Positions 3,291 through 54,073 of a stretch of DNA of 64,000 nt are shown in pieces (position 1 is the first letter of the stretch; every line of letters begins with the position of its first letter). This DNA is from an uncultured Collinsella sp. Lineage in GTDB: Bacteria; Actinomycetota; Coriobacteriia; Coriobacteriales; Coriobacteriaceae. Location of the stretch: assembly GCA_900751755.1 (NCBI GenBank), contig CAADSP010000075.1, positions 13,916 to 77,915 of the forward strand, given 5' to 3'. Below the pieces are notes generated by a model that had not been told where the DNA came from, made no database searches, and saw only the letters and a list, made by a program, of their open reading frames with translations. A program made the translations under genes and the position numbers.

Positions 3291-3368
3291 GATGGATTGT
3301 ATGCTGCCAGGGTGATCGGTGGATGCGCGGGGCTGCTGTTATGAAAAAGAAACTATTGCACTGTGCGC

Positions 3369-3563
3369 TTATGCCGTGGAACAGGCCGCGAAAACGCGTG
3401 CGGGATATCCAACGCCATCGCGCATCTTGGGGAAGGTGCAGAAGATGACGGCGCCCATGGCGGGAAGCTCGTCCAGATGGTCCATGACCTCGATCTGATA
3501 GCGGTCGACCGAGAGGATGTATTGCTCGCCGGGATAGGGGTGGGCATCCTCACGTGTGGTCAC
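3369..3563 (-). CDS. Small hypothetical protein (64 aa)
   Basis: GTG start preceded by GAAGGGAGG with a 5-nt spacer. Its own downstream hairpin plus T-tract sits at 3261..3290. No recognisable domain. Confidence 0.4.
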   Translation of the reverse strand: MTTREDAHPYPGEQYILSVDRYQIEVMDHLDELPAMGAVIFCTFPKMRDGVGYPARVFAACSTA

Positions 3564-3707
3564 GCTCGCCTCCCTTCATCGGGCTTTTTGCTGATGTTAA
3601 AGCGGTGCCGTGACAGCTCGATTTCTGCTGCGTTACGATACGTTCTCGATTGCGATTCCACGATGTTTCGGCCGCGTGACCATTGTGTTTCGCCTTGCCG
3701 AGCGCTG

Positions 3708-4916
3708 ATGGCGAAGGGAGGGTCCGTGCAATACCGCGTTGACCCCAAAAGTGGTAACCGAATATCTGCTCTGGGTCTGGGCTGCATGAGGTTTCCCGGT
3801 GCGCCGGGACATCCCGATGCGAAGACGGCCGATGCCATCATTTCCCGTGCGGTGGAGCAGGGGATTAATTATCTGGATACCGCGTATCTCTATCCCGGCA
3901 ACGAGGTGTGCGTGGGCGCCTCGCTTGAGCGCTTGGGACTGCGCGACCGGGTGTTGCTGGCGACTAAGTTGCCGCACGCTTCGTGTACTTGCGCAGAGGA
4001 TTTCGACCGTTTCTTTGACGAACAGCTGCGTCGGCTACGGACCGACCGTATCGACTATTACCTTATGCACAACATTACCTCGCCCGCCCAGTGGGAACGT
4101 GTGGTGGCGTTGGGCATCGAGGACTGGATCGCGCGTCAAAAGGCGGCGGGGCGCATTCGCCAGATTGGTTTTTCGTATCACGGCAGCGCGGGGGATTTCC
4201 TGACGGTGCTTGACGCATATGACTGGGATTTTTGCCAGATCCAGTACAACTATGCCGGCGAGCGTTACCAAGCGGGAACGGCAGGACTCATGGCGGCTGC
4301 GGAGCGCGGTCTTGCGGTGTTTGTGATGGAGCCACTGCTGGGCGGTCGTCTAGCGGGCAAACTTCCGCCGCGGGCACGCGCTGTGCTCGATGGCGCCCGT
4401 GACCCGCATTTGCGCACTCCGGCCGCCTGGGGGCTTTCGTGGGTGTGGAACCATCCTCAGGTGACGATGCTGCTTTCGGGTATGACCGATACCGCGCAAG
4501 TGGATGAGAACGCGGCGTTGGCCGATCGGGCCCTGCCGGATTCGATGACGGCTGCTCAGCTCGATGCCATCGCACGCGTGCTGAGGGAGTTTGAAAAATC
4601 GAATCGCGTGCCCTGCACGGGATGCGGCTATTGCATGCCGTGTCCTAAAGGCATCAATATCCCTGGGTGTTTTGCTGCCTACAACGCAAGCTATGCGCAC
4701 AGCTGGTTTACGGGGCTGTCTCAATACTTTACGGCGAGCGCGGTGCGGACGAACGAGCCCAAGCTGGTGAGCAATTGCGTCAAGTGCGGCAAATGCGCGC
4801 GGCATTGCCCGCAGCACATCGATATCCCCGGGCGCTTGGACGACGTACGCCGCCGTTTTCAGCCTGGCCCCGTGACGGCGGTGCTTAAGGCCTTCGGCAA
4901 AACGCGCTCCTCGTGA
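3708..4916 (+). CDS. Aldo/keto reductase with C-terminal 2x[4Fe-4S] ferredoxin domain
   Basis: AKR signature (LGLGCMRF, IDYYLMH) plus CTGCGYCMPCP and CVKCGKCARHCP cysteine clusters. The true start may be the GTG at 3726, 4 nt after AGGGAGGG. Confidence 0.8.
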   Translation: MAKGGSVQYRVDPKSGNRISALGLGCMRFPGAPGHPDAKTADAIISRAVEQGINYLDTAYLYPGNEVCVGASLERLGLRDRVLLATKLPHASCTCAEDFDRFFDEQLRRLRTDRIDYYLMHNITSPAQWERVVALGIEDWIARQKAAGRIRQIGFSYHGSAGDFLTVLDAYDWDFCQIQYNYAGERYQAGTAGLMAAAERGLAVFVMEPLLGGRLAGKLPPRARAVLDGARDPHLRTPAAWGLSWVWNHPQVTMLLSGMTDTAQVDENAALADRALPDSMTAAQLDAIARVLREFEKSNRVPCTGCGYCMPCPKGINIPGCFAAYNASYAHSWFTGLSQYFTASAVRTNEPKLVSNCVKCGKCARHCPQHIDIPGRLDDVRRRFQPGPVTAVLKAFGKTRSS

Positions 4917-4995
4917 CCCTTTTATAACTTGCGGTGGAATAGTTCCTGCTTGCGGCAGAATAAGGCATCGACAGGAACTATTTCACCGCAACTGA
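4917..4995 (+). repeat. 79-nt palindromic leader element, copy A
   Basis: 78/79 identical to 6104..6182. A 20-bp stem TTGCGGTGGAATAGTTCCTG/CAGGAACTATTTCACCGCAA with a 23-nt loop. Starts right after the AKR stop and ends just before the RBS of the next gene. Confidence 0.85.
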
Positions 4996-5006
4996 AGGGG
5001 GCTGTC

Positions 5007-6026
5007 GTGGGCCATCGGGATTCATGTGATGATTTGCGTGAGGTTCGTTGGGGCGTTTTGGGCGCTGGACGCATTTCTCATCGATTTGCATCGTCGCTCA
5101 AGAAGGTCGACGGGGCACGGCTGGTGGCTGCGGCCGGTCGCACCCCTTCGCATGTTGAGGAGTTTTGCAGGGCGTTTTCGATTGATGCCGCGCACAGTTA
5201 TGCCACGGCTGACGATAGCGGCGATGCGGCTTATGATGCGCTGATTGCCGACCCCGATGTCGACGTAATCTACTTGGCTCTTCCACATGGCATGCATGCG
5301 CATTGGGTCTGTCGGGCACTGCGCGCGGGAAAGGCCGTGCTGTGCGAAAAGCCGGCCGTTTTGAACGAAGAAGAGGCTCTCTCGATTGCCTCCACCTCTC
5401 GCGAGCGCGGCGTGCTGTTTATGGAGGCGATGAAAAATCGGTTTTGTCCGATGCGTACTCGCGTGAAGGGCTTGCTTGCGTCTGGCGAGCTCGGCCGTAT
5501 CGTCTCGATTGAAAGCGTGCAAAAACTCGATTATGGTGAGCCCCCTTCGAGTTATCTGCTCGACCCATTGCAGGGTGGCTGTCTATATGACATGGGCTGC
5601 TATGCGGTCGGTTGGTTTGAGGATTTGCTCGCGGGCGCGTGCGAGGTTTCGTCCCATGAAGTTCGCTGGCGTGACGTATCGGGCGGCCGCGTCGATTGGG
5701 CCGACGAGGTCCATATGAGCGTCGGCGGTATACCCATTCATATGGTGTGTGACGGCAAAGCAGCATATGAAAGCCGCTTAACGATTGCCTGCGAGCGGGG
5801 TTCGTTGGAAATCGAGCGCCTCCATCGCCCCGAGCTCGCCCATGTGAAGTACTCCGACGGACGAATGCTCGAAATAAATGCCCCGTTTGAGGTCGATGAT
5901 TTCTACGGCGAAATCCAGCATGCGACCCAGCTCATCCGGGCGGGGAAACACGAGAGCCCCGTCATGCCCCTTGCCGCCACACAGCGCTGCGCGCGCATTA
6001 TCGATGCAATCCGTCTAGCCCTCTAG
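5007..6026 (+). CDS. Gfo/Idh/MocA family NAD(P)-dependent oxidoreductase
   Basis: GTG start 5 nt after AAGGGGG. N-terminus RWGVLGAGRISHRF is a Rossmann motif. The extension to 4929 would translate the repeat element. Confidence 0.75.
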   Translation: MGHRDSCDDLREVRWGVLGAGRISHRFASSLKKVDGARLVAAAGRTPSHVEEFCRAFSIDAAHSYATADDSGDAAYDALIADPDVDVIYLALPHGMHAHWVCRALRAGKAVLCEKPAVLNEEEALSIASTSRERGVLFMEAMKNRFCPMRTRVKGLLASGELGRIVSIESVQKLDYGEPPSSYLLDPLQGGCLYDMGCYAVGWFEDLLAGACEVSSHEVRWRDVSGGRVDWADEVHMSVGGIPIHMVCDGKAAYESRLTIACERGSLEIERLHRPELAHVKYSDGRMLEINAPFEVDDFYGEIQHATQLIRAGKHESPVMPLAATQRCARIIDAIRLAL

Positions 6027-6103
6027 GACCTGGCGCTGACGCGTGAGGGATCATGACGCCGGCGCCCGTAGCCGTAGTGCTCGGTGGCCCGCATCTCTGA
6101 TGC

Positions 6104-6182
6104 CCCTTTTATAACTTGCGGTGGAATAGTTCCTGTTTGCGGCAGAATAAGGCATCGACAGGAACTATTTCACCGCAACTGA
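6104..6182 (+). repeat. 79-nt palindromic leader element, copy B
   Basis: Near-identical to 4917..4995. Followed by GAGGGGGAG and the nfo ATG. Confidence 0.85.
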
Positions 6183-6198
6183 TGAGGGGGAGCTGGGG

Positions 6199-7065
6199 AT
6201 GCTGACGATCGGATGTCATCTATCCACGACGAAGGGCTATCGGGCGATGGGGGAGACGGCGTTGTCAATTGGCGCCAATACCTTTGCATTCTTTACGCGC
6301 AACCCGCGCGGCGGCAAGGCGAAAGACCTTGACATGGATGACGTGGCCGCCCTGCGCGAGCTTATGGAACAGAACGATTTTGGCCCGCTTGTGGCTCATG
6401 CCCCGTATACCTATAACCCCTGCTCGGCCAAAGAGCGGGCGCGCGAGTTTGCCTTGGAGGCCATGGCGGAGGACCTGCGGCGCATGGAAGCGCTGCCCGG
6501 CAACTACTACAACTTCCATCCCGGTGCGCATGTGGGGCAGGGCTCCGACGCCGGCATTCAGATGATCGTCGACACCCTGTGCCAGGTGATGTTTGAGGGC
6601 CAACAGACGACGGTGCTGCTCGAGACCATGGCCGGCAAGGGCACCGAGGTGGGCCGCAGCTTTGAGGAACTGGCACTCATCATCCAGGGCGTTGCCGACA
6701 AGTGTCCCGAGCTGTCGGCCAAGTTGGGCGTTTGCTTGGACACCTGCCATGTGAATGACGCCGGCTACGACATCGTCCACGATCTTGAAGGCGTGCTCGA
6801 CGAGTTCGATCGTGTGGTGGGTATCGAGCGCCTGCGCGCCGTGCATATCAATGACTCCAAGAACCCCTGCGGCGCCCATAAGGACCGCCACGAATGCATC
6901 GGTAAGGGCTACCTGGGTAGCGAAGAGTTTGGCGGCGGTATGCAGGTTATGCAGAATATTGTATCGAATGGCCGCTTGCGCGCATTGCCATTCATTTTGG
7001 AGACACCGAACGAACTTGCAGGTTATGCGGCTGAAATCAAATTGTTAAGGTCATTGCAGCAGTGA
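6199..7065 (+). CDS. nfo: Endonuclease IV (AP endonuclease, deoxyribonuclease IV)
   Basis: Xylose-isomerase-like TIM barrel with Nfo metal-ligand motifs (HAPY, ETMAGKG, CLDTCH, HINDSK), 288 aa. Confidence 0.85.
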
Positions 7066-12162: not shown

Positions 12163-12435
12163 GCGTTGCCCTCTCCGGTGGGTACCAGCCTCCTGCCCAT
12201 TGTGACTATCGGTATCCAAAAATTTGCGCAAAAAATAATCTTTAGATGCGGCGAAAGTGGAGTTTGGTGACGGTTTGCGCGGAATTCGCCACCAATCGAG
12301 CATCTATTAACCCGTCCAAAAAATTACAGGTGTATATTTATACGCTGATTATTGCTGCGCCCAGATCGCAATTAAACGTGGACAGAGATGAGAAATGCTA
12401 AAACTGGGCTTAAGGTCAGGGGAGGCTATAGCTTT

Positions 12436-14997
12436 ATGAGACGAGTGAGAACACTTGGCTTGGTGGCAGCGCTTGCCGCTATCTTGGTATCGCCGCTGCC
12501 GGCGCACGCCGAAGACGCTTCGGGTGCCGTTACCTACAATGCGGGAAATGGGTATTCCTTTGAGAAGCTCTCGCATCCTACGGTAGGAACGTCGCAGCCG
12601 GATGGCATCGTCGACTACCAGGGTAACGGTGCCGTTGCCGTTCCGGGTGCCGATGGTAATACGGCCAACAACGAAGGCGATCGCGGCCAGAGCTACACTT
12701 GGGCGGCTGCGAGCTATGGTGACTGGCTTTATGTGGGCACCTGCTATGCGGCGATGGGCAACACGCTTACGCTCATGGACAGCACGCTGGGCGATTCCTT
12801 TGATGCCGAGACCATGCGCCTGACGCTGGAGGCCATGTTTAACGGCACGTTCTTCTATGGACAGCAGAAGGAGGACGGCACGGCCGACAAGGACAGCGGC
12901 GGCATCTTGGTTAAGATCAATACCAAGACCGGTGAGACCAAGCTGCTGCTCTCTGAATCGCTCAACGGCGTCGGTCCTTTGTTCCGCAATGCCGTGAGCT
13001 ATAAGGGTAAGCTCTATTTCTGCGGCAGCGTCAGGACCAATGGCGGCAAAAGCGGTCTGCCTTCTGTATACGAGATCGATCCTAAGACGGATGAGTGGAA
13101 AGTTGTCTATCAGGGCCTTTCGAGCGTGGACGATTACCGCGATGCCTACAAGCAGGGCATCTCAACCGGTATCCGCGGCATGTGCGTCCATGATGGCCAG
13201 CTCGTCATCAGCAATGTGGGTAAAGCGGGCAATGAGTTTGTGGCGACAATCCTGACGTCATCTGACCCTTCGAAGGGCCAGGCTAGCTTCACCGAGATTG
13301 CTAACTCGAAGACGCTGTTTGGCTATCCGGCGATTCGCTATCAGGACAGCATCTACGGTGGCGCCATTTGGGATATGGTTTCGTACAATGGCCATCTCTA
13401 TGCGACCATCTGCACCGGTACGCCCGAGAACGCTCCCGATGATAATTCCATGCAGTCGTTTGCCATGGTTCGTGGCGACAAGAACGCCGACGGCAGCTAT
13501 TCGTGGACTCCCATTGTTGGCGATAAGGATGCGACCGATCCAAAGTGCCGTGCAAAGTACTGCTTTGGCATCGATCCTGCCCGTACCCGTTCTGGCGCTG
13601 CCAACCTCATCGTCTACAACGACTACCTCTATATCGGTGAATACAACGACGAGGAGATTGCCCTCGAGCGCATCCTGTTCAACAAATCCAACACCGAAGA
13701 GGGCGGCAAGAGCAGCATGGGCGGCGTTGACTGCTCGTTTGTGAATGCCAATCTTGAGCAGTCGGTTAACATCTATCGCATGGACAAGGACGAGAACATG
13801 GAGCTCGTCGTTGGCGATCGCACCGACATGTTCCCCGAGGGCGGCATTTCCGGCCTGACTTCGGGCTTTGGCCGAAACGAGAACCAGTACATTTGGCGCA
13901 TGCAGAAGTTCGACGGCAAGCTGTATATCGGTACCTTTGATACCGCGAGCCTGCTTGAGCCGATCGGCCAGTTCTCCAATGGCGACATTATCGATATGAC
14001 GCCCGAGGAGTGGGACTCTCAGGTTCAGCGCCTTAGGGACCTGCTCGATCACCTGCTCGACAAGAAATCGCCTGACGACCCCATCGTTCCCGTGAACACG
14101 CTTGCGGACGATGATTCAAACGAGGCCGTCGAGGTCGATGATTCGAACGAAGCTGCCGAGGTTGATGATTCAAACGAGGCCGTCGATGTCGATGACGAGA
14201 AGACCGAGGTTGCTAAGGGCTTTGGCGATCTAAGCGATGCGCTGGAGGATGCCACGGGCGATCTTTGCGATCAGGCCTCGACGATGTCCCAGGACTTTGA
14301 GGACGACGCCGCTTATGTCCAGAAGATCGATGGCGAGATCGCGTACTTCAAGTCCTTTGCCGACCAGTATCAGGACATGCTCGATAGCTATGAGAGCCTG
14401 AAGCAGCAGTACGAGGATGCCTATGGCACCGAGCTGCCGGGCGATATTCAGGATGCGCTCGATAAGCTGCTGAGCGAGGAGAACCTCAAGAAGCTGCAGA
14501 GCGTGCTTACGTGCATGTACTACCTGCGCGATGCCGAGCGCGGCTTTGATATGTATGTGACCGAGGACGGCGTGAACTTTACGACGCTGACGACCAATGG
14601 CTTTAACGATCCGTATAACCATGGTCTGCGCACCTTTGCGGTGACCAACCAGGGTCTGTGCCTTGGTACCGCCAACCCGTTCTATGGCTGCCAGGTTTGG
14701 ATCCAGCGCAAGGAGAATTCGGAGAATCCGATTGATCCCGGTACTCCGGATCCGACGAAACCCACCAATCCTTCGCAGCCGGGTGGCGGCGATCAGCCTG
14801 GTGGCAGCCAGACGGGCGGCAACGACCAGTCGAGCAGCACCACGACCACCGTCACGACGGCCACTAAGAAGACTCCGAAGGACGGCTCGCTGCCTCACGC
14901 TGGCGACTCGACCCTCACGCTGGTCTTGGGATTGCTGGTTGCAGCTGCCGCGGTGCTTGGCATTGCCCTCGTCTTGCGCAAGCGTTCTTGTCGCTAG
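12436..14997 (+). CDS. Large cell-surface protein with a cell-wall sorting signal (LPHAG, then TM, then RKRSCR)
   Basis: Signal peptide. Repeated G-x-LY-x-G strand motifs suggest a beta-propeller. Acidic tandem repeats. Pro/Thr-rich stalk. A C-terminal sortase-type signal. Confidence 0.75.
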   Translation: MRRVRTLGLVAALAAILVSPLPAHAEDASGAVTYNAGNGYSFEKLSHPTVGTSQPDGIVDYQGNGAVAVPGADGNTANNEGDRGQSYTWAAASYGDWLYVGTCYAAMGNTLTLMDSTLGDSFDAETMRLTLEAMFNGTFFYGQQKEDGTADKDSGGILVKINTKTGETKLLLSESLNGVGPLFRNAVSYKGKLYFCGSVRTNGGKSGLPSVYEIDPKTDEWKVVYQGLSSVDDYRDAYKQGISTGIRGMCVHDGQLVISNVGKAGNEFVATILTSSDPSKGQASFTEIANSKTLFGYPAIRYQDSIYGGAIWDMVSYNGHLYATICTGTPENAPDDNSMQSFAMVRGDKNADGSYSWTPIVGDKDATDPKCRAKYCFGIDPARTRSGAANLIVYNDYLYIGEYNDEEIALERILFNKSNTEEGGKSSMGGVDCSFVNANLEQSVNIYRMDKDENMELVVGDRTDMFPEGGISGLTSGFGRNENQYIWRMQKFDGKLYIGTFDTASLLEPIGQFSNGDIIDMTPEEWDSQVQRLRDLLDHLLDKKSPDDPIVPVNTLADDDSNEAVEVDDSNEAAEVDDSNEAVDVDDEKTEVAKGFGDLSDALEDATGDLCDQASTMSQDFEDDAAYVQKIDGEIAYFKSFADQYQDMLDSYESLKQQYEDAYGTELPGDIQDALDKLLSEENLKKLQSVLTCMYYLRDAERGFDMYVTEDGVNFTTLTTNGFNDPYNHGLRTFAVTNQGLCLGTANPFYGCQVWIQRKENSENPIDPGTPDPTKPTNPSQPGGGDQPGGSQTGGNDQSSSTTTTVTTATKKTPKDGSLPHAGDSTLTLVLGLLVAAAAVLGIALVLRKRSCR
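14098..14190 (+). repeat. Three tandem 30-nt coding repeats (DDSNEAVEV units) inside the surface-protein gene
   Basis: GATGATTCAAACGAGGCCGTCGAGGTC appears three times with silent or conservative changes. Confidence 0.8.
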
Positions 14998-40151: not shown

Positions 40152-40292
40152 TGCTCGACGCTGCGCGGGCCGCAAGCACCCCATCTTGCCGTTCAAGCCG
40201 TCGCTCGCGTACCGAAGTACGCGTCGCTCCTCTTTCACGGCAACCTGGGGCACTTGCGGCCCGCTCGCTGTTGGTTACGCAACATCAACAAA

Positions 40293-53699: not shown

Positions 53700-53925
53700 C
53701 GTAAACCTCGCTATCCAGACGGCGCCATCTGCGCATCGAATCCGCATAGCGTGGACCCAATGTCCGGATAGCGCTCCCGCATTGCTGCAGACAGTCCTGT
53801 GGGTGTTTCCCACAGGCCCACCAGGTTGTTCGTGCCCGAAAAACCCAGTTCGGCGGGTTTCGCCTCCCCACGGGGTCAAAGTCTGCCGACTCGCCCGTGG
53901 CTCTTCGTGCCCGCGCCTCTATCAA
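53700..53925 (-). promoter_or_regulatory. Lysine riboswitch (L-box) in the leader of the lysA-dapA-dapB-dapH operon
   Basis: The minus-strand RNA begins GATAGAGGCGCGGGCACGAAGAGCC. It contains GGGGAGGCGAAACCCGCCGAA, CCTGGTGGG and ACTGTCTGCAG L-box hallmarks. GCGCTATCC / GGATAGCGAGG can sequester the SD. Confidence 0.65.
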
Positions 53926-54073
53926 GTGGTAAAGACCCTATCACGTTGCACTTTACCAAACAAGAGTATTCGTATATAACGTTTAAAAAATGCAGCAATA
54001 TGCTGGAAACATGTGTGCCACAATCCTGTATCACAATAAGTTGCAACAGATGTGCCTCACGAAGGGATTCTCT

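Follow-up and report, generated by a model that had tools for sequence, protein, structure and literature searches.

A family of interspersed palindromic hairpins in Collinsella, with gene conversion and deletion between two of its copies beside nfo

Collinsella is among the most strain-diverse genera of the human gut, and to our knowledge its non-coding DNA is almost unstudied. We analyzed a 64,000-nt stretch of DNA from an uncultured Collinsella sp. (contig CAADSP010000075.1; hereafter the window, numbered from its first letter), in which two near-identical copies, A and B, of a hairpin-forming repeat bracket a gene encoding a Gfo/Idh/MocA oxidoreductase (hereafter Gfo). The bracketed gene lies between an aldo/keto reductase gene (AKR) and nfo, which encodes endonuclease IV (Table 1), and an amino-acid ATP-binding cassette (ABC) transporter is encoded downstream of nfo. 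The TGA stop codon of AKR ends directly before copy A, 12 nt ahead of its 5′ arm, which is the position typical of the repeat family described below. The initial annotation of this DNA had each copy directly follow a TGA; this is correct for copy A and the AKR stop codon, but the TGA before copy B (6098-6100) is not the stop codon of Gfo, which is a TAG at 6024-6026. The Gfo protein is called as a gene in public assemblies too, and the nfo protein is identical on many human-gut Collinsella contigs. A search through nfo homologs yielded no distant synteny, the best 120 matches all being at least 96% identical.

A repeat search of the window returned the two copies as an 88-nt direct repeat (4914-5001 and 6101-6188; 95% identical, 1187 nt from start to start), the sole direct-repeat family reported for the locus. 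The repeat is thus slightly longer than the pair of 79-nt hairpins, one base apart and each with a 20-bp stem and a 23-nt loop, that had been noted before, a description that otherwise holds: C4949 versus T6136 is the sole difference within that span. Beyond the 88 nt there is no similarity between the surroundings of A and B (local alignment score 9, compared with 8.7 ± 1.7 in shuffles), and an apparent remnant of the AKR C-terminus before copy B, which would have extended the duplication into the 3′ end of AKR, was rejected when its alignment score proved equal to that of shuffled sequence. The arms at this locus, TTGCGGTGGAATAGTTCCTG and CAGGAACTATTTCACCGCAA, form 19 Watson-Crick pairs and one G.U pair on the + strand around the 23-nt loop. 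The predicted RNA folds of copy A (-48.5 kcal/mol, z = -5.8) and copy B (-58.1 kcal/mol, z = -8.6) were each matched in stability by none of 200 shuffles. In both copies an outer stem of CCC(C)UUUUAU and (A/U)GAGGGGG draws the purine-rich ribosome-binding sites of Gfo and nfo into the pairing, the GAGGGGG at the 3′ end of copy B being the nfo ribosome-binding site itself. With up to three mismatches allowed, the window contains four occurrences of the 20-mer arm, where chance would give 0.00, and a covariance model (R1) run on the 64 kb found copies A and B only. The loop contains a partial third motif (TTGCGGCAGAATA) that is confined to this locus and does not characterize the family at large.

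Table 1. Features of the AKR-nfo region, in window coordinates (L001-L011 are the eleven loci compared)
Feature	Position	Strand	Evidence or remark
Aldo/keto reductase with 4Fe-4S domain (AKR)	3363..4916	+	Pfam PF00248 and Fer4 families; gene calls in L001-L011
Copy A, full 88-nt unit (outer flank CCCTTTTATAAC, core hairpin, then CTGAAGGGGG)	4914..5001	.	R1 71.3 bits, E = 1.5e-18
Copy A 5′ arm TTGCGGTGGAATAGTTCCTG	4929..4948	+	
1187-bp segment (one repeat period) absent from Gfo-less strains	4929..6115	.	L001 and L005
Copy A 23-nt loop CTTGCGGCAGAATAAGGCATCGA, locus-specific part, starts with C4949	4949..4971	+	
Copy A 3′ arm CAGGAACTATTTCACCGCAA	4972..4991	+	
Gfo/Idh/MocA oxidoreductase gene (Gfo), GTG start, between the copies	5007..6026	+	Pfam PF01408, PF22725
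Copy B, full 88-nt unit	6101..6188	.	Direct repeat and inverted repeat; R1 75.3 bits, E = 9.6e-20
Copy B 5′ arm	6116..6135	+	
Copy B 23-nt loop TTTGCGGCAGAATAAGGCATCGA	6136..6158	+	
Copy B 3′ arm	6159..6178	+	
nfo (endonuclease IV), ATG 20 nt past copy B 3′ arm	6199..7065	+	Pfam PF01261; named deoxyribonuclease IV in Collinsella

The hairpin is not unique to these two sites. An exact scan of species-representative genomes with an 18-mer (GCGGTGRAATAGTTCCTG) returned at least 120 stretches, and all matches listed were Collinsella or Coriobacteriaceae assemblies. The matched stretches contain 154 listed elements at no fewer than 47 non-orthologous loci, with conserved arms and unrelated loops. 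The unit has a core of ~63 nt, or ~88 nt when the weak CCCC...GGGG outer flanks are included, and consists of two inverted 23-nt arms (AAGTTGCGGTGRAATAGTTCCTG) around a loop that is 23 nt long in most members (range 21-24) and unrelated in sequence between loci. The conserved half-element reads AAG-TTGCGGTG-R-AATAGTTCCTG followed by three A/T-rich positions, and further out there is a weak tendency to be C-rich on the left and G-rich on the right. This CCCC/GGGG tendency is a weak family consensus; the possibility that the outer flanks form a locus-specific stem, as would follow from insertion into existing terminator hairpins, was rejected, since an element's own flanks pair at -6.9 kcal/mol and flanks taken from different elements at -7.35 kcal/mol. 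Elements are A+T-richer than the genome (45% versus 59% G+C). No Rfam family matched the element, the only matches being chance ones to microRNA precursors (17-28 bits against thresholds of 77-95), and a literature search did not find the arm sequence in published papers or supplements. These comparisons show that the hairpin belongs to a genus-specific set of interspersed palindromic repeats in Collinsella, which is new as a family but not as a kind.

Model R1 detected ~128 elements in 748 kb of selected stretches, and because density in the selected 8-kb stretches (~1 per 34 kb) is biased by clustering, it was replaced by a survey of contiguous chromosome. On 576 kb of C. aerofaciens TSDC17.2-1.1 (NZ_OY725717.1) R1 found 11 elements, ~1 per 50 kb, with none in the first 300 kb and all 11 in the next 276 kb, which suggests a few dozen copies per genome, unevenly spread. 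NZ_OY725717.1 bears the PLSDB label "plasmid 6" (900 kb) and carries recA, dnaE, rpoB/C, rho, secA/Y and most ribosomal protein operons, and is therefore a piece of chromosome; it also carries many IS21, IS30, IS256, IS3, IS110 and IS200 copies and a BREX system. A 32-nt mini hairpin consisting of the stem base only (CTGCGGTGGAATC-GATAGG-GATTCCACCGCAG; L124:1940-1977), with a T-tract on the strand of the gene that it follows, sits after a gene with a paralog that has a full element (L124:137-211).

The gene context of the family was established with our own codon-usage gene caller, taking one representative of each orthologous group, and with the annotation of the Prokaryotic Genome Annotation Pipeline for the 11 chromosomal copies. 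Among the representatives, the neighboring genes are convergent for 18, tandem for 30 and divergent for none; the chromosomal copies are distributed likewise (4, 7 and 0). For 8 of the 11 chromosomal copies, 7-24 nt separate the element from the closest stop codon upstream, and members overall lie 7-60 nt after stop codons; in tandem contexts, the gap to the following start codon mostly exceeds 70 nt. Elements occur in either orientation, and none is inside a gene. By these gene predictions, the typical member directly follows a gene rather than preceding one. The nfo locus is unusually tight, with only 95 nt from AKR to nfo in its deleted form, so that here the hairpin also touches a start codon; the G-rich flank, a weak feature of the family, is rarely used by downstream genes elsewhere. 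The initial annotation had proposed that the element supplies the 5′ leaders of the genes after it, or is a REP/MITE-like element (MITE, miniature inverted-repeat transposable element) carrying an outward-facing ribosome-binding site. The dispersed, REP/MITE-like part of that proposal is correct. The leader and the outward-facing ribosome-binding site are not supported as its general meaning, because members hug upstream stop codons and are common between convergent genes, and start codons are abutted only at this compact locus.

Orthologous copies are conserved in a pattern that follows the hairpin. In 173 orthologous pairs, arms are 97.3% identical, loops 90.1% and the 60-nt flanks 89.4%. 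Between the window and a more distant Collinsella (L132), the element cores are 87-94% identical with the arms essentially unchanged, and nucleotide identity is 85% in AKR, 79% in Gfo, 87% in nfo and 71% in the non-coding tail after Gfo; the arms thus exceed the adjoining coding sequence in conservation. The first 12 bp of the stem are invariant, whereas the inner stem needs only pairing. Subfamilies show fully compensated stem changes: GTTCC/GGAAC becomes GGGAC/GTCCC or CGGAC/GTCCG, GAATAG/CTATTC becomes GATATAG/CTATATC, and the orthologous copy B of L060, L063 and L064 has four consecutive compensated pairs beside a loop that is still homologous. Loops fold better than their shuffled counterparts (mean z = -1.45, t = -7.6, n = 47), typically through a GGCC...GGCC mini-stem. 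Inversion of the loop between the arms was considered and dismissed, the inverted loop aligning better in 0 of the 173 pairs. Arm conservation, compensated stems, the invariant base and the existence of a mini version together indicate that what is conserved is an extruded hairpin with a sequence-specific base.

Strain comparisons at the nfo locus reveal what the repeat pair can do. The order AKR-A-Gfo-B-nfo is found in 9 of the 11 compared loci. In the other two (L001 and L005) Gfo is absent, and the 95-nt AKR-nfo intergenic region holds a single hybrid element, flanked as A is on its left and as B is on its right, the exact product expected of recombination between direct repeats. The alignments show that recombination between A and B has deleted a 1187-bp segment with Gfo and left one hybrid copy before nfo, as had been anticipated from the direct-repeat arrangement. 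This gene order, with both copies, also occurs in two more distant Collinsella (L132 and L134; Gfo 77-79% identical). In a still more distant relative (L133; Gfo 59% identical), Gfo stands ahead of an Nramp gene, with the same transporter genes and no element. Gfo is therefore ancestral at the site and the Gfo-less strains are deletions. L001 and L005 differ at 247 sites in the 3 kb upstream, and each is nearer to a Gfo-positive strain than to the other. With the two on different upstream haplotypes, either the deletion would have arisen at least twice or a recombination breakpoint would lie at the element. Strain relationships read from the 3 kb before AKR-nfo differ from those read from the 4 kb after it (L003 and L002, for example, differ at 309 sites upstream and 3 downstream), a discordance that places a recombination mosaic boundary at or near the elements.

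The near identity of A and B has a different explanation from the one first offered. The two copies were compared over 75 positions in 13 genomes. They differ at 1-2 positions in 8 of these, where both copies have the same loop type (...AATAAGGCATCGA or ...AATAGGGGCCAAA), at 5 positions in L132, and at 10-17 positions in L090, L064, L063 and L060; A and B co-vary within genomes. A joint switch of loop type in both copies is the signature of gene conversion, and across these genomes the 78/79 identity in the window is shown to be a derived, homogenized state reached through gene conversion and not a recent duplication. The initial inference of recent duplication or mobility is wrong here, given the presence of A-Gfo-B where Gfo is only 77-79% identical and the 10-17 differences between A and B in several species. 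The homogenized state, with 88 nt of uninterrupted homology, makes deletion easy. In L132, a motif (CCTGATGCCCCTTTT) is duplicated directly upstream of copy A (L132:3880-3925), and both copies are preceded by CTGATGCCCCTTTTATAA, so that the repeated unit there reaches a few bases further left than in the window.

Gfo is a decaying, dispensable gene: some strains have lost it by deletion, and in many others it carries a frameshift or is cut short. Its called length varies by strain (339, 306, 300, 244 or 191 residues), and many truncated protein clusters exist. Between species, Gfo evolves faster than AKR or nfo. The G-run of its ribosome-binding site (window 4994-5006) alternates between GGGGG and GGGG across strains (L002, L004, L006, L010), and in strains with GGGG the gene is called from a later start, giving 300-306 aa. 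In the codon-usage model, AKR (517 aa) scores 39 and Gfo (365 aa) 28, far below nfo (288 aa) at 100.

A second gene-sized presence/absence variant was found in which two elements surround an AAA_14/DUF4143 gene in L039 and L074, and a single element is present in L056; the 5′ arm of the latter looks hybrid, and at the left junction of the variant the left flanks are not a clean match. Other genes lying between two elements were examined as candidate transposases and rejected, as was this one: they encode a GntR regulator, an M24 peptidase, XdhC, YqeC and a helix-turn-helix (HTH) protein. An IS200-type tnpA in L008 (L008:14340-14810) was likewise set aside as the mobilizer, its flanks being unrelated, and neither of the two tnpA genes annotated in NZ_OY725717.1 adjoins an element. 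Phage origin was also rejected: two real matches occur in viral contigs, both of Collinsella-like G+C, and none in a phage collection. Most loci are common to several species (29 orthologous groups), and copies in different species mostly occupy orthologous sites, a pattern that gives no hint of recent activity. Three comparisons of filled with empty sites gave a partial deletion (L103 versus L031), the exchange of an element for a plain, unrelated hairpin that occupies the equivalent site behind the stop codon (L109 and L057 versus L113), and a tandem pair against a single element (L129 versus L055 and L087). Flanks often read AT/AAG...CTT/AT, which is indistinguishable from an extension of the palindrome.

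Several other mobile or variable sequences were noted. The spacer between the ABC transporter ATPase gene and a flavodoxin gene varies between strains, holding the IS200/IS605 tnpA in L008 and a gene for a 1559-aa protein with a weak FIVAR match in L004 (L004:14517-19196); further downstream, after an HMA gene, L009 has an HTH_38 transposase-like gene (L009:16366-17724). A different A+T-rich insertion of ~250-300 nt adjoins a family element in L096 (L096:4735-5010) and is also present in L053, L057, L071 and L113 and absent from L109. It ends in long inverted repeats (TTTCAAAACTATGCCGGATTACGGGGCTG ... CAGCCCCGTAATCCGCCATAGTTTTGAAA) and has the look of a second Collinsella MITE.

The closest known kinds of element are REP/REPIN and bacterial MITEs such as Correia or ERIC. 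REP and REPIN sequences, the latter being REP doublets that form hairpins, are found in Proteobacteria and are mobilized by RAYT transposases. The Collinsella family resembles them in its tens of copies per genome, its extragenic position after genes in tandem and convergent intergenic regions, its pair of conserved inverted units that form one long hairpin around a spacer (~23 nt) of lower conservation, and its own conservation beyond neutral expectation; known REP roles, which are protection of mRNA 3′ ends and attenuation, fit the position. Unlike REP, the Collinsella arm TTGCGGTGGAATAGTTCCTG is not itself palindromic, having only a 4-bp self-complement (GGAA/TTCC) that is lost in subfamilies, and it has no 5′ GTAG. 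The host is an actinobacterium, the spacers are unrelated yet fixed at ~23 nt, and no RAYT gene flanked by elements was seen in the surveyed parts of genomes, where the only Y1-type transposase genes noted were tnpA of the IS200/IS605 type. Like the MITEs Correia/NEMIS of Neisseria and ERIC/IRU of enterobacteria, the element is small (63-88 nt), has no open reading frame, is A+T-richer than its surroundings and has 23-bp terminal inverted repeats. As with Correia and ERIC, it would form a hairpin when transcribed, is intergenic in operons and can carry signals acting on neighbors; Correia hairpins are substrates of RNase III. It differs from MITEs in that the internal region is not common between copies. 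No parent insertion sequence with the same ends was found in ~1.5 Mb of Collinsella DNA, and the three comparisons of filled with empty sites gave no target-site duplication or clean empty site.

Two further systems bear a partial resemblance. DNA uptake sequences of Neisseria (DUS) and uptake signal sequences of Haemophilus (USS) also occur as inverted pairs directly after genes, including convergent ones, where the pairs function as terminators too, and Collinsella has comEC and dprA. The Collinsella arms, in contrast, are always paired, are 23 nt rather than 9-12 nt long, occur about once per 50 kb rather than about once per kb, and are never intragenic. Integron attC sites, including the Vibrio cholerae repeats, are imperfect palindromes at the 3′ ends of single genes with conserved ends and a variable center, and Gfo, as one gene between two copies that is present or absent across strains, is arranged like a cassette. 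The Collinsella ends, TTATAAC ... CAACTGA, differ from those of attC, and the stems are near-perfect without extrahelical bases, and the elements are dispersed in both orientations without arrays.

We consider it rather probable that these observations have one joint explanation, namely a dispersed palindromic family of REP/MITE-like origin with a role as an mRNA 3′-end hairpin, together with conversion and Gfo deletion at this locus. The element would have spread in the past as a non-autonomous REP/MITE-like unit, and selection would now maintain it as a long hairpin, readable from either strand, at transcript 3′ ends. From its position after stop codons, we infer that the hairpin acts at transcript 3′ ends, where it may block 3′ exonucleases, terminate or attenuate transcription without a U-tract, or do both, and a candidate factor that reads the invariant stem base may take part. 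At the compact nfo locus, the hairpin would bury the ribosome-binding sites of Gfo and nfo, probably lowering or uncoupling translation, and we take this masking to be a local side effect and not the purpose of the family.

A number of results weigh against this explanation. Its 3′-end role is a prediction from sequence. A scan with a terminator consensus found nothing at copy A or B and no U-tract, and taken over all members, the 10 nt that follow the hairpin are only marginally richer in T when read in the sense direction (2.5 versus 2.0 T, p = 0.06). Stem mismatches on the sense strand comprise 29 G.U and 26 A.C, with no bias to G.U, so that selection at the RNA level is not demonstrated by them, and the symmetry would be explained just as well by a role in DNA, be it as a cruciform, as single-stranded DNA or through protein binding. 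As to origin, dispersal is the only sign of past mobility. None of the three filled-versus-empty comparisons gave a clean empty site with a target duplication, and ~1.5 Mb of Collinsella DNA, a limited search space, contained neither unpaired arms, nor arms around a transposase, nor a parent insertion sequence with the same terminal repeats; the initial annotation had likewise asked whether the element is part of a larger insertion sequence or MITE with the same ends, and none was found there. Unrelated loops of fixed length between paralogs are unusual for both MITEs and REPINs.

The element resembles an intrinsic (Rho-independent) terminator in lying directly after the stop codon of the gene it would serve, and differs from one in that it does not have a G+C-rich stem with a direct U-tract. 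Within the family, a T-tract was seen only with the mini version. U-tract terminators are not enriched in this genome, 22 being found against 17.6 expected, and no match to a sigma-70-like promoter was found within the element.

That the element is instead a dedicated cis-regulatory 5′ leader, whose hairpin hides the ribosome-binding sites of Gfo and nfo as an RNA thermometer, RNase III site or riboregulator target, seems to us unlikely. The locus itself lends the idea some force: CCC(C)UUUU pairs with the GGGGG ribosome-binding site in both copies within very stable folds, the whole 88-nt unit including its flanks is kept before nfo in species whose neutral tail is only 71% identical, and the G.U pair of the + strand stem would correspond to a C.A mismatch on the - strand. 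Across the family, however, members follow stop codons, often between convergent genes with no downstream gene and mostly at over 70 nt from the start codon that follows, their orientation to transcription is random, G.U is not favored on the sense strand, and no Rfam family matches; a leader function could remain as a local secondary effect only.

It is more doubtful still that the element is a binding or structural site in DNA, at which a host protein of nucleoid organization, segregation, topoisomerase or repair function binds the invariant 12-bp base in a duplex or cruciform, the position after genes being merely tolerated. The full symmetry of the element with no strand bias, the division of the stem into a base invariant in sequence and an inner part that needs only pairing, and the uneven chromosomal distribution (0 in 300 kb, then 11 in 276 kb) would all suit such a site. 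Conserved loop-tip pairing and compensated stems, on the other hand, speak for a hairpin that is extruded and against a pair of half-sites in duplex DNA. The spacing from stop codons is very narrowly set (7-24 nt), and no candidate protein is known.

A more speculative proposal, to which we give little credence, is that the family is a working system and not a decaying selfish repeat, in which a putative Collinsella factor reads the invariant 12-bp stem base of an extruded hairpin and the hairpins are both transcript ends defined by sequence and preferred points of recombination, a cassette logic without an integron. Gfo and the AAA_14/DUF4143 gene would then be cases of single-gene loss or gain at hairpins, in a genome largely without U-tract terminators. 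Least probable of all is an attC-like cassette site, with a site-specific recombinase that recognizes the hairpins and inserts or excises single genes between them: although Gfo is precisely present or absent between two copies, the AAA_14/DUF4143 variant (L039 and L074 versus the single, hybrid-looking element of L056) may be a second case and the elements lie at gene 3′ ends as attC sites do, the arrangement around Gfo is ancestral, its deletion is accounted for by ordinary recombination between repeats of 88 nt, elements stand singly among core genes in both orientations without arrays, the attC end consensus RYYYAAC/GTTRRRY is unmatched, the left flanks of the second case do not match cleanly, and no integrase was seen in the 20-kb neighborhoods of the locus.

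Elsewhere in the window, a lysine riboswitch aptamer at 53761-53929 (- strand; RF00168, 82 bits against a gathering score of 30) is the sole Rfam match. Three tandem 27-nt repeats (GATGATTCAAACGAGGCCGTCGAGGTCGATGA-like) at 14110-14195 lie inside the open reading frame at 12388-14997 and probably encode an acidic repeat, and an inverted repeat with 48-nt arms, 73% complementary and 4 nt apart, is present at 40165-40264.

The consensus, the covariance model and the positional rule together let annotators mark a few dozen conserved non-coding elements per genome in Collinsella, and the family helps to explain assembly breaks and apparent structured RNAs in metagenomic screens. With its natural variants, the nfo locus is a worked example of repeats erasing an accessory gene, and of how gene conversion can make old repeats look recently duplicated. 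If it is true that the hairpins define transcript ends, the family would offer a tractable model of U-tract-independent 3′-end formation in Actinomycetota.

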